Assembly (NCBI RefSeq): GCF_024502345.1
Contig: NZ_JALDNN010000001.1
Reading direction: 5' to 3' (one strand)
DNA length: 64,000 bases
DNA from: Escherichia coli
Lineage (GTDB): Bacteria > Pseudomonadota > Gammaproteobacteria > Enterobacterales > Enterobacteriaceae
Shown here: one piece after another, positions 36,516 to 40,428 of the stretch
How positions within the stretch are numbered: the stretch's first letter is position 1
Layout of the letters: every line of letters starts with the position of its first letter
Program-made: the position numbers and the translations under genes
The notes under the pieces: generated by a model
What the model was told of the DNA's origin: nothing
Databases searched by the model: none
Seen by the model: only the letters and a program-made list of their open reading frames with translations

Positions 36516-37736
36516 TGTAGATTCAATTGGTCAACGCAACAGTTATGTGAAAACATGGGGTTGCGGAGGTTTTTTGAATGAGACGAACATTTACAGCAGA
36601 GGAAAAAGCCTCTGTTTTTGAACTATGGAAGAACGGAACAGGCTTCAGTGAAATAGCGAATATCCTGGGTTCAAAACCCGGAACGATCTTCACTATATTA
36701 AGGGATACTGGCGGCATAAAACCCCATGAGCGTAAGCGGGCTGTAGCTCACCTGACACTGTCTGAGCGCGAGGAGATACGAGCTGGTTTGTCAGCCAAAA
36801 TGAGCATTCGTGCGATAGCTACTGCGCTGAATCGCAGTCCTTCGACGATCTCACGTGAAGTTCAGCGTAATCGGGGCAGACGCTATTACAAAGCTGTTGA
36901 TGCTAATAACCGAGCCAACAGAATGGCGAAAAGGCCAAAACCGTGCTTACTGGATCAAAATTTACCATTGCGAAAGCTTGTTCTGGAAAAGCTGGAGATG
37001 AAATGGTCTCCAGAGCAAATATCAGGATGGTTAAGGCGAACAAAACCACGTCAAAAAACGCTGCGAATATCACCTGAGACAATTTATAAAACGCTGTACT
37101 TTCGTAGCCGTGAAGCGCTACACCACCTGAATATACAGCATCTGCGACGGTCGCATAGCCTTCGCCATGGCAGGCGTCATACCCGCAAAGGCGAAAGAGG
37201 TACGATTAACATAGTGAACGGAACACCAATTCACGAACGTTCCCGAAATATCGATAACAGACGCTCTCTGGGGCATTGGGAGGGCGATTTAGTCTCAGGT
37301 ACAAAAAACTCTCATATAGCCACACTTGTAGACCGAAAATCACGTTATACGATCATCCTTAGACTCAGGGGCAAAGATTCTGTCTCAGTAAATCAGGCTC
37401 TTACCGACAAATTCCTGAGTTTACCGTCAGAACTCAGAAAATCACTGACATGGGACAGAGGAATGGAACTGGCCAGACATCTAGAATTTACTGTCAGCAC
37501 CGGCGTTAAAGTTTACTTCTGCGATCCTCAGAGTCCTTGGCAGCGGGGAACAAATGAGAACACAAATGGGCTAATTCGGCAGTACTTTCCTAAAAAGACA
37601 TGTCTTGCCCAATATACTCAACATGAACTAGATCTGGTTGCTGCTCAGCTAAACAACAGACCGAGAAAGACACTGAAGTTCAAAACACCGAAAGAGATAA
37701 TTGAAAGGGGTGTTGCATTGACAGATTGAATCTACA
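36516..37736 (+). mobile_element. IS30 insertion sequence (complete, 1221 bp)
   Basis: Left end tgtagattcaattggtcaacgcaacag, right end ...acagattgaatctaca; ATG at element position 63; flanking dinucleotide AC on both sides. Confidence 0.9.
36578..37729 (+). CDS. insI: IS30 transposase
   Basis: 383-aa [62 protein letters not shown]... Confidence 0.9.
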
Positions 37737-38650
37737 ACCGCTCTTGATGTCAGACTCCCTGAACAGTTCTCGATAATCGGGAAACTCAGGGCGCGTTATC
37801 CTGTGGCCACTCTCTGCCATGTGTTCGGGGTCCATCGCAGCAGCTACAAATACTGGAAAAACCGTCCTGAAAAGCCAGACGGCAGACGGGCTGTATTACG
37901 CAGCCAGGTACTTGAACTGCATGGCATCAGCCACGGCTCTGCCGGAGCAAGAAGCATCGCCACAATGGCAACCCAGAGAGGCTACCAGATGGGGCGCTGG
38001 CTTGCTGGCAGACTCATGAAAGAGCTGGGGCTGGTCAGTTGCCAGCAGCCGACTCACCGGTATAAGCGTGGCGGTCATGAGCACGTTGCTATCCCGAATC
38101 ATCTTGAGCGACAGTTCGCCGTAACGGAACCAAATCAGGTGTGGTGCGGTGATGTGACCTATATCTGGACGGGTAAGCGCTGGGCGTACCTCGCCGTTGT
38201 TCTCGACCTGTTCGCAAGAAAACCAGTGGGCTGGGCCATGTCGTTCTCGCCGGACAGCAGGCTTACCATGAAAGCACTGGAAATGGCATGGGAAACCCGT
38301 GGTAAGCCCGTCGGGGTGATGTTCCACAGCGATCAAGGCAGTCATTATACGAGCAGGCAGTTCCGGCAGTTACTGTGGCGATACCGGATCAGGCAGAGTA
38401 TGAGTCGGCGTGGAAACTGCTGGGATAACAGCCCAATGGAGCGCTTCTTCAGGAGTCTGAAGAACGAATGGGTGCCAGCGACGGGCTATGTAAGCTTCAG
38501 CGATGCAGCTCACGCAATAACGGACTATATCGTTGGATATTACAGCGCACTAAGACCGCACGAATATAATGGTGGGTTACCACCAAACGAATCAGAAAAC
38601 CGATACTGGAAAAACTCTAACGCGGTGGCCAGTTTTAGTTGACCACAACA
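37737..38650 (+). mobile_element. IS3-family (IS911-like) element, 3' ~0.9 kb only; orfA and left end missing
   Basis: Contains orfB only, beginning 66 bp after IS30; right end reverse complement tgttgtggtcaactaaaactggccacc resembles IS911 terminal repeat. Confidence 0.7.
37803..38642 (+). CDS. IS3-family transposase OrfB (integrase core, DDE), IS911-like; orphaned from orfA, probably non-functional
   Basis: 279-aa ORF ...[45 protein letters not shown]...[20 protein letters not shown]...; rve-type DDE region. Confidence 0.7.
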
Positions 38651-39838
38651 GTCACCGAACTCGATAATAAAGCGACTCATGGCTATCCGCCAGTCCTGAA
38701 GTGGCATCGTCCATTTCTGTGAGGCTGACTGGATAGCCAGCCTCATCACTTTTTTCACCGATTCATCTATCGGGAACACTTTCCGTTTCTTTATCGCATG
38801 TCTGATGACGCTATTCAGCGATTCGATTGCGTTAGTGGTGTAGATAACCTTGCGGATCGCCTCCGAATACACGAAGAAGGTGGCAACATTCGGCCAGTTT
38901 GCCCGCCAGCTGCGACTTATCTGCGGGTACCGTGCATCCCATTCCTTCCCGAACGCATCCAGCGCCTGCAACGCGCCTTCTTCCGTGGCTGCGCGGTAAA
39001 CCTGTTTCAGGTCACGGGTTACCGCTTTATAGTCTTTCCACGCCAAGAACCGCAGGCTGTTGCGTGCCATGTGTACTATGCACAACTGGATCTGCGTCTC
39101 CGGGTAGACGGCATTAATCGCTTCCGGGAAGCCTTTCAGGCCGTCCACACAGGCGATAAGGATATCGTTCAGCCCGCGATTTTTCAGTTCCGTCAGTACA
39201 TTCAGCCAGAACTTTGCACCTTCATTTTCGGCCAGCCACATACCTGGCAGCTCTTTCTGACCATCAAGGTTAATACCCAGAGCCAGGAACACCGCTCTGT
39301 TGATAACCCGGCTGTCCTGCCGTACTTTCAGGACAATACATTCAAGATAAACAATGGGATAAATCGCATCCAGAGGACGGTTTTGCCATTCTACAACCTG
39401 GTCGATTGCGGCATCGGTGACTTTCGATATCAGCGCCGGAGAGACGTCTGCATCGTACATTTCTTTGAAGACTGAGGTAATTTCGCGGGTAGTCATCCCT
39501 CTGGCATACAGCGCCAGGATCTGGTTGTCCATGCCGGTAATGCGGGTCTGATTTTTCTTCACCAGTTGTGGTTCGAAGGAACCATCACGATCACGTGGAG
39601 TACGTAATTCCATCGGCCCGTCGGTAGTGGTGACGGTTTTCGTGGAATAGCCATTACGGGAGTTGGTTCCCGATTTGGGCTGATTTTTTTCATGTCCCAG
39701 ATGGTGAGTCAGTTCAGCGTTGAGAGCAGCCTCAACACTGATTTTCTTGAGCAGGCGATCGAACTGACTGAGATCTTCAGGGATTTTGAGATTTTTGGCC
39801 AGTTCGTTAGCCAGAGCCTGCAATTGTTTGTCGTCCAT
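38540..39838 (-). CDS. IS256-family (Mutator-like) transposase; last few native codons replaced by read-through into the IS911 end
   Basis: 432-aa [58 protein letters not shown]...[49 protein letters not shown]...; C-terminal ~35 aa are encoded by the antisense of the IS911 orfB end. Confidence 0.75.
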
Positions 39839-39905
39839 AATTTAACCTTCATTTGATGTTGAATTGAACATATCAAAATCAGGCAATTACACAAATATAT
39901 GTACA
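38651..39905 (-). mobile_element. IS256-family element, apparently 3'-truncated at the junction with the IS911-like end; right boundary approximate
   Basis: Transposase ORF plus ~65 bp AT-rich upstream sequence; composition shifts to GC-rich near 39905. Confidence 0.55.
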
Positions 39906-40055
39906 GGCTCGCACCTGGGCTTGCCTGACTGACCGCAGGCCGGCGACGACAAGGTGGAAAAGTTCGGCGTGTGGCTCTGGCGGCAACGATCCCGCGAAGG
40001 GCGGACGGTGCTTGAGCTGTTGAACGTAAGCATGCGGGCAAACCATCTTGCGCGA

Positions 40056-40428
40056 CTATGCCGGATGCCACCTATGCGGCAGCAGCTCTGCAATCTCACT
40101 AGCTCGCTGCGTCGGCAACCGTCTCAGCACATCCTTGAGATAGGCATACGGATCGTGCCCATTATTACGGGCCGACTGGATCAAACTCATGATCGCAGCA
40201 GCGCGCTTGAGCATGCGAACCCGCGCCGAGCATTTGAGAAGGCAACGGGATGAACGCTGGCTGGATAGCCGTGGTTTTCTGGGTAAGCAGGCGAATCCAT
40301 TTGTGGACGAGGTTGGCATTGAGGCTGTAGCCCAAGGCGATGTTTGCGATGGAGGCACCGGGTTCAGAACACTCCTGAATGACCTGGGCCTTGAAAGATT
40401 TGCTGTAGGTACGGCGCTGAGGGCGCAT
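40056..40428 (-). mobile_element. IS66-family remnant: TnpA N-terminal part joined to TnpC C-terminal tail (internal deletion)
   Basis: MRPQRRTYSKSFKAQVIQECSEPGASIANIALGYSLNANLVHKWIR (IS66 TnpA-like HTH) and, in another frame, ...AAAIMSLIQSARNNGHDPYAYLKDVLRRLPTQRASEIAELLPHRW (IS66 TnpC C-terminal motif). Confidence 0.5.

Follow-up and report, generated by a model that had tools for sequence, protein, structure and literature searches.

The DNA considered here is a 64,000-nucleotide stretch of an Escherichia coli contig (NZ_JALDNN010000001.1, assembly GCF_024502345.1), termed below the window. Four insertion sequences (IS) are crowded between its positions 36,516 and 40,505, and they form an ordinary IS pile-up composed of one intact and three broken copies. 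The cluster is an internal seam, at which a Citrobacter mhp operon meets the tLST/LHR heat-resistance island, and the edge between chromosome and island is located elsewhere. Open reading frames (ORFs) were called in six frames and families were assigned by profile searches with cut-offs of 80 bits for NF033563, 160 bits for NF033516 and 150 bits for NF033543, while the IS names are based on PGAP annotations of identical loci and on curated features of K-12. A reading made earlier from the letters alone (the sequence-only reading) had listed four IS types at essentially these coordinates, and the profile scores confirmed the families. The seam and its left arm consist of the following features:

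29126-36513, minus strand: block with the second mhp operon (29224-36513), mhpT-E-F-D-C-B and the 3' 1383 bp of mhpA; left arm of the mosaic
35131-36513, minus strand: mhpA' pseudogene of Citrobacter type, N-terminal ~100 codons missing (Pfam FAD_binding_3, profile positions 88-348 only)
36514-36515, no strand: left copy of the 2-bp IS30 target duplication (AC), corresponding to IS911 nt 334-335 and not to mhpA
36516-37736, plus strand: intact IS30 of 1221 bp, transposase ORF 36578-37729 (383 aa; NF033563)
37737-38650, plus strand: 3' fragment (914 bp) of an IS3-family element of IS911/ISEc52 type, with the right AC copy (37737-37738), orfB' and the right terminal repeat
38651-39910, minus strand: IS256-family element without its last 54 bp (6 codons and stop, one terminal repeat)
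39911-40017, no strand: unassigned 107-bp flank that separates the IS256 end from the target duplication of IS66, shared with a C. freundii plasmid and E. coli alleles
40018-40505, minus strand: internally deleted IS66-family element of 472 bp (40026-40497) with its 8-bp direct repeats

The IS30 copy has all the traits by which its family is recognized: the transposase scores 276 bits with NF033563 and contains the Pfam domains HTH_38 and rve in an intact 383-aa ORF, the length of ~1.2 kb is combined with ~26-bp imperfect repeats that agree at 23 of 26 positions, and a 2-bp duplication flanks the element. It differs from IS30A of K-12 by 3 mismatches and is the only IS30 within the window. The neighbouring IS3-family fragment scores 304 bits with NF033516, with profile positions 104-368 only, that is the OrfB part (DDE/rve). 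Its right terminal repeat is intact (...GTTGACCACAACA) and its right end reads ...CCACAACA; IS911 nt 1-333 are absent, and with them orfA, the A6G -1 frameshift site and the left terminal repeat, so that the fragment begins at the AC which in IS911 lies directly downstream of AAAAAAG. It is a remnant and not a functional member of the family. The fragment is identical to IS911A-1 of K-12 at 424 of 427 positions (99.3%) apart from a 2-bp indel. A 2-bp CG deletion directly after the AC is specific to the allele of the window. PGAP labels the fragment ISEc52, and identity falls to ~93-94% in copies to which PGAP gives the name IS911. Of the 3-bp target duplication and the repeats ending in ...CA that are usual in this family, the right repeat is preserved and the left junction has been deleted. 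The sequence-only reading was right that only orfB is left, although the missing 5' part amounts to about 333-335 bp and not to 336 bp.

The IS256-family transposase (405 bits with NF033543; PF00872, Mutator-type, E = 9e-112) is a chimeric ORF of 432 aa, in which 396 authentic codons are followed by 36 codons read through into the terminal repeat of the IS3-family fragment, just as had been noticed from the letters. Only one terminal repeat is left (39881-39910), thus the element is not complete. A complete copy of 1314 bp, with both 30-nt terminal repeats and a 402-aa transposase, is present in the C. freundii plasmid p6_A (NZ_CP048383.1; extracted locus L003, 3947-5260), and since the alignment with p6_A begins at position 4001 of that locus, equal to window 38651, 54 bp are missing from the window copy. 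From 38651 to beyond 41500 the plasmid is 99.7% identical to the window and carries the same IS66 derivative, 107-bp spacer and IS256-family element, but it contains no IS911-type, IS30 or mhp DNA.

The IS66 family is defined by GTAAGCG-type ends and 8-bp duplications. The derivative in the window is bounded by an exact 8-bp duplication (TGTTGAAC at 40018-40025 and 40498-40505), by which its ends were located, and its imperfect terminal repeats read GTAAGCATGCGG.../GTATCCGTCCGG...; a generic inverted-repeat search for these ends gave nothing convincing. Codons 1-66 of tnpA run from 40428 down to ~40230 (NF047595, positions 1-66 of 113, with 68 bits where the cut-off is 74); the tnpC piece, its terminal ~35-55 codons, runs from 40220 down to 40056 (NF033517, positions 355-387 of 387; PF13817, 59 bits against 30), the tail being 81% identical to a Stutzerimonas IS66 transposase. 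No tnpB was found in the derivative by profile search, so the full tnpA-tnpB-tnpC set is not there. The claim of a remnant with tnpA and the tnpC tail therefore holds, yet the two pieces lie side by side in different reading frames and are not fused, and the element ends at 40497, with the duplication reaching 40505, instead of at 40428. Of the complete elements with normal target duplications, which the sequence-only reading had named as the outcome that would speak against it, IS30 is the only example; the IS3-, IS256- and IS66-family members are all incomplete. These three are immobile relics, because the first has lost orfA and its left end, the second one of its ends and the third its transposase. 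IS30 is evidently the sole element of the four that is still mobile, intact and active in the population. Nothing suggests a function for the IS cluster as such.

The two dinucleotides that flank IS30 are informative about how the seam arose. In nine of nine intact Citrobacter and Escherichia mhpA genes the sequence is ...CAGCAAAGCA/GCGGCC, therefore the homology of mhpA' ends at 36513. Reading the left AC as a part of mhpA was rejected, since all nine genes have GC at that position; native Citrobacter mhpA reads AAAGCA/GCGGCC, and the left AC is thus assigned to IS911 nt 334-335. A chance match of the two AC copies (1 in 16) was rejected as well, because an exact empty allele exists. The Citrobacter mhp block adjoins mmuP in 106 of 5426 complete E. 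coli genomes (~2%); among these carriers IS30 is present at the seam in ~30 genomes, 26 of which have the whole cluster as in the window, and it is absent from the seam in 67. Three alleles were distinguished:

allele 1: empty seam, AAAGCA-AC-CGCGCTC (for example AH04, ...CAGCAAAGCA-AC-CGCGCTCTTG...)
allele 2: AC/IS30/AC-CGCGCTC (Z226-5, FAM21845)
allele 3: AC/IS30/AC-CGCTC, with the extra 2-bp CG deletion (the window, strain 81, 22AR0118)

Alleles 1 and 2 differ by exactly IS30 and one AC. As 67 genomes depart from the occupied seam in just this way, the AC is a true IS30 target duplication, and the complete 1221-bp element with AC on both flanks, as had been described from the letters, is borne out with its exact ends at 36516 and 37736.

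The DNA on the left of the cluster is not chromosomal DNA of E. coli. The native lacZ-lacI-mhpR-mhpABC region is located at 1701-9701 and is 98.2% identical to K-12 in a local comparison, and the second copy beside IS30 (mhpC-mhpB-mhpA') is only 82% identical to native E. coli mhp. In a comparison with one genome per species, the 5.4 kb at 31125-36513 were found to be 98.1% identical at the nucleotide level to C. portucalensis A60, with MhpA' identical at 100% of amino acids; other Citrobacter species reach 91-97% and Escherichia 90%. The left arm is therefore of Citrobacter origin. In the local comparison with K-12, homology on the mmuP side (99.9%) stops at 29125, ~7.4 kb to the left of the IS cluster, and on the right, homology to CP4-6 (99.8%, from yafY' as far as the att site of thrW) restarts at 56779. 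Between these points a foreign mosaic of ~27.6 kb (29126-56778) is lodged inside prophage CP4-6, between mmuP and yafY, in the order Citrobacter mhpT-to-mhpA' block, IS cluster, tLST and truncated IS5-family element. The G+C content changes in steps at the element borders, from ~59% to ~46% in IS30, then ~50-57%, then >60% in tLST. On these grounds we rejected the proposal that mhpA' is the native copy and that chromosome and island meet at the cluster (native lac-mhp at 1701-9701; seam copy 82% identical to native and 98% to Citrobacter), and the cluster cannot be kept as the left boundary of the stress island that the sequence-only reading had made of it. The right part of the mosaic holds two further features:

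40936-41217, plus strand: tLST/LHR orf1, excisionase-type helix-turn-helix protein, the first island gene (PF12728, TIGR01764; PGAP annotation of the identical locus)
56181-56778, minus strand: truncated transposase of the IS5 family that terminates the mosaic on its right side, with yafY' homology from 56779

The genes for sHSP20 and ClpK come after orf1 in the heat-resistance island. One might suppose that the cluster is the end of a composite transposon, bounded by IS30 or by other IS, that moves tLST as a unit. On plasmids of Enterobacter, Salmonella and Klebsiella, IS30 and IS911-type elements do lie directly upstream of tLST, although at another junction (40113). The window, however, has a single IS30 where two copies would be needed, the mosaic ends on the right in an IS5-family fragment, no matching target duplication is found at the mosaic ends and 67 carriers have no IS30 at the seam, which makes this explanation extremely improbable. 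On those tLST plasmids a complete IS911-type element is split by IS30 (CP056561.1; L005, 3402-5721), and IS30 sits at the same dinucleotide in the opposite orientation, with tLST joined at another breakpoint, 40113, which falls within the IS66 derivative. The left flank of tLST is thus a place where IS911-type elements and IS30 recur.

K-12 also carries IS30 in IS911 within CP4-6 (insN/insI/insO), as the sequence-only reading stated, and a comparison of the junctions showed the same dinucleotide (GGCT-AC/IS30/AC-CGCGCTC), directly downstream of the A6G frameshift motif. Taken with the 99.4% identity over 1658 bp and with the position of the mosaic in CP4-6 between mmuP and ykfA/yafY, which is the interval of K-12 IS911A::IS30A, this might indicate that the junction is the ancestral K-12-type copy, which served by homologous recombination as the entry point of the stress island. 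A group II intron, present in sister alleles at the IS911 position where K-12 IS911A-1 ends, could be added in favour, although intron homing is site-specific, so a shared intron site is no sign of shared ancestry. The surroundings of the two junctions are different: both flanks here are foreign (Citrobacter mhpA' on the left, where K-12 has IS911, and IS256'-tLST on the right) with no CP4-6 DNA on either side, and the orientation relative to mmuP and ykfA is inverted. K-12 keeps IS911 nt 1-335 and has lost everything after nt ~764 (the 3' 486 bp), whereas the fragment in the window has a complete 3' end and lacks nt 1-333. Moreover, the K-12-type IS30/IS911 junction occurs in 428 PLSDB plasmid records, and in 140 records IS30 is reversed at the same IS911 dinucleotide; these junction records cover Escherichia, Klebsiella, Enterobacter, Citrobacter, Salmonella and Shigella. 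Plasmids on which the junction is common come from more than 10 genera, and some of the plasmid copies are no less similar than that of K-12 (99.6%). Since both orientations are found at one dinucleotide, at least two independent insertions must have taken place, and the IS911 AC dinucleotide is an IS30 hot spot; a junction shared with K-12 is accordingly no proof of common descent. The idea of an ancestral scaffold, which had been put forward from the letters, has to be given up as very improbable in view of the foreign flanks, the inverted orientation and the 428 and 140 plasmid records. IS30 is known to generate 2-bp duplications, to prefer nearly palindromic hot spots and to insert in either orientation (Olasz/Kiss group, PMC9333248), in agreement with what is seen here; nothing usable on a published hot-spot consensus was found in the literature searched.

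Roughly half of the occupied alleles, as well as some of the empty alleles, have the intron itself (~2.3 kb, with ltrA) inserted at 38163/38164 (L006, 3364-5635); the window lacks it. K-12 IS911A-1 ends at the same nucleotide as the intron site (NC_000913 272190) and is followed by eyeA and by the ykfC reverse-transcriptase remnant, from which it follows that K-12 has the same intron, in truncated form, at this very site of IS911.

The reading that we prefer, and to which we assign a probability of roughly 0.6, is that IS30 was first inserted in a complete IS911-type element, itself residing within the IS256-family element, and that a deletion or fusion driven by IS30 then joined it to Citrobacter mhpA. 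In this scheme an IS66-family element would first have entered DNA beside tLST, producing the 8-bp duplication TGTTGAAC and later losing its interior, and the 1314-bp IS256-family element would next have been inserted 115 bp outside it, a state that still exists on the C. freundii plasmid. These two steps are suggested because the arrangement of IS256, the IS66 derivative and tLST is intact on p6_A. The tLST arm is older than the seam: 38651-41500 is 99.7% identical to the C. freundii plasmid, and the IS66 derivative, from 40113 onward, occurs in more than 1100 tLST plasmids of Klebsiella and Enterobacter. The 107-bp flank is not shared with the Klebsiella plasmids, in which homology begins at 40113. 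Third, an IS911/ISEc52-type element would have been inserted 54 bp from the 3' end of IS256, and fourth, IS30 would have entered the hot-spot AC (IS911 nt 334-335), just past the frameshift site. Fifth, an IS30-driven rearrangement, likely an inverted repeat-inverted repeat (IR-IR) junction attacking a target in cis, would have joined the left end of IS30 to Citrobacter mhpA, with deletion of IS911 nt 1-333, the 54-bp IS256 tail and the intervening DNA, the AC being retained as junction spacer or flank. The entire block would then have been transferred into CP4-6 of E. coli, where change would have continued: IS30 in ~30 genomes against absence in 67, the CG loss, the group II intron, IS1, IS3 and IS110 insertions, and deletions. 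The anatomy, the origin of the left arm in Citrobacter, the existence of the empty allele, the use of the hot spot and the position in CP4-6 have been demonstrated; what we infer is the order of the third to fifth steps, the part of IS30 in the fifth and the species in which that step happened.

The role of IS30 in making the seam is argued from the break in IS911, which falls exactly at the IS30 target dinucleotide (chance ~1 in 10^3). Besides, it is the AC of the old IS911 flank, and not the GC of mhpA, that stands on the left of IS30, which fits the behaviour of IS30 IR-IR junctions; these have a 2-bp spacer, give rise to deletions in cis and leave mismatches that may be repaired in either direction (PMC9333248). 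The sequence-only reading had likewise supposed that IS30 insertion and an adjacent deletion removed the orfA side together with upstream DNA. That part is probable, given the position of the break, yet IS30 is polymorphic at the seam and 67 sites are empty.

There is another possible history, in which the IS30-less seam (mhpA'-AC-IS911 nt 336 onward) came first and IS30 was inserted afterwards, perhaps repeatedly, into the surviving half of the hot spot. Several observations speak for a late insertion. The empty and occupied alleles form a textbook insertion signature (IS30 and a 2-bp duplication); the empty alleles outnumber the occupied ones roughly two to one (67 against ~30); and the empty S43 group retains the ancestral base at 39689. 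IS30 transposes by copy-out-paste-in, elements of this kind seldom excise, and a precise loss of IS30 with one AC, by which the 67 empty alleles would have to be derived from an occupied ancestor, is not a standard outcome (PMC9333248). Thus, although the 2-bp duplication, hot-spot preference, either orientation and IR-IR deletions of the IS30 transposition network are matched, an exact empty allele is not normally predicted from it, and neither an IR-IR junction nor a second IS30 is now present. It also weighs against the scheme of an IS30-driven fusion that no copy of a complete IS911-type element beside the IS256 remnant was found, and that no mhpA'-IS joint was found in a Citrobacter genome or plasmid. 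For a late insertion it counts further that the site is a proven hot spot, used in both orientations.

A late insertion would nevertheless require that an unrelated break happened to hit, within an element of 1250 bp, precisely the dinucleotide targeted by IS30 (~1 in 10^3), at a joint between mhpA' and the IS that has no microhomology. The occupied FAM21845 keeps the ancestral Citrobacter base at 33575, which has been lost in all empty alleles, and one IS30 sequence variant is present in all occupied alleles, identical save for one change private to the window. A table of single-nucleotide polymorphisms (SNPs) in ten alleles, with Citrobacter outgroups, yielded ~6 informative sites that conflict with one another and do not resolve the polarity of IS30 gain or loss. 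In it the window shares two derived SNPs, one on each side of IS30 (34957 and 39783), with the empty AH04 and not with the other occupied alleles, so that the IS30 status is either homoplastic and recurrent or has been shuffled by recombination. On balance we regard a late simple insertion as the less probable of the two, though an explanation to be taken seriously, and the IS30-driven fusion is retained.

A pre-IS30 state was sought by exact look-up of the chimeric 432-aa IS256/IS3 read-through ORF, and the only divergent context came from a metagenome contig (ENA ERZ27310493 k141_202699). It was rejected as the pre-IS30 ancestor, for it is an IS hybrid formed by recombination through the group II intron. 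On its reverse complement (2614-5700) the 5' part of an IS629-like element (orfA/orfB), the group II intron, an ISEc52 3' part and the IS256' joint follow one another, near a yeeJ-like invasin gene and mtfA; apparently two different IS3-family elements, each with an intron copy, recombined through these copies to give the hybrid. This contig puts tLST in another chromosomal context. Further disruptions were observed at the seam in other genomes: an IS3-family element within IS30 in Z226-5, IS1 within IS30 in FAM21845, where genes of a Mu-like phage follow downstream, a deletion in S1 that reaches from IS30 nt ~147 to within the IS256 element, and an IS110-family element together with the group II intron in the IS3 fragment of S43, ECONIH4 and 2273-PO3.

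All four elements belong to IS kinds already known, and the heat-resistance locus has already been described as flanked by mobile elements. In FAM21845 the LHR was reported to be bounded by mobile elements on its 5' and 3' sides; three transposase genes lie on the 5' side, and 'orf0' comes before orf1 (2017, PMC5514686). The same mhpA'-IS30 joint as in the window is present in that LHR, its IS30 being broken by IS1, but the individual elements, their truncations and the Citrobacter mhp arm are not resolved in that paper, and the presence/absence polymorphism of IS30 is not mentioned. In a limited literature search no paper was found on the mhp arm from Citrobacter, on the position of the island in CP4-6 or on the polymorphism of IS30. 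The general importance of the seam is small. It may be of use for tracking the heat- and chlorine-resistance island in E. coli from food and wastewater, since it offers precise markers testable by PCR, i.e., three alleles of the IS30 site and the intron, IS1, IS3 and IS110 variants. It also places the island, in ~2% of complete genomes, in CP4-6 together with a Citrobacter mhp operon, which points to Citrobacter as the immediate donor, and it documents a natural IS30 hot spot in IS911-type elements, used in both orientations on hundreds of plasmids. A bolder and quite tentative thought is that an IS30 hot spot was reconstituted at the seam, and that in natural E. coli populations IS30 has entered it and left it precisely more than once, the island having come into E. 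coli on a piece of Citrobacter chromosome. If so, the seam would show from nature that an insertion sequence of the copy-out-paste-in type can be lost exactly, and a complete second mhp catabolic operon would have been carried in alongside the heat-resistance island.

Some minor observations concern the surroundings of the cluster. An 88-aa hypothetical protein (WP_001295708.1, 40440-40706, plus strand), 'orf0', begins within the left terminal repeat of the IS66 derivative and crosses the target duplication; it is named a phospholipase homologue in the LHR literature, it gave no Pfam or NCBIfam match and it is probably not a real gene. Rfam and tRNA scans gave no match in the 36-41 kb region. 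The left junction of the mosaic (29125/29126) corresponds to the nucleotide to the outer end of IS5A in K-12 (NC_000913 275149/275150); no IS5 sequence remains there, and the different IS5-family fragment with which the mosaic ends on the right shares only 70% identity with IS5A. At that right end the fragment is joined straight to yafY' (56756-56779), where strain 81 (NZ_CP088131.1; L008, 17190-21576) has 4.4 kb extra with a ykfA-like GTPase gene, a yafZ-like gene, a WYL gene and ypjK; the genome studied here therefore has an additional deletion at this point. Homology to CP4-6 stops at ~60068 inside a remnant of the thrW att site, at which ARAGORN found no tRNA gene. Beyond it, up to 64000, a second CP4-like set (ykfI/yafW/ykfG-like, 77-87% to K-12) runs in the opposite orientation, which suggests tandem or rearranged islands at thrW. 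An IS1-like element at 25097-25865 separates the native lac side from mmuM/mmuP and is 99.2% identical to the copy of IS1A in strain 81; the distance from lacZ to mmuP is only ~18.5 kb compared with ~88 kb in K-12. Finally, three tandem naRNA4 copies (RF02564, 65-70 bits) with 94-bp spacing are located on the minus strand at 18731-18995, a REP-type array unrelated to the IS cluster.

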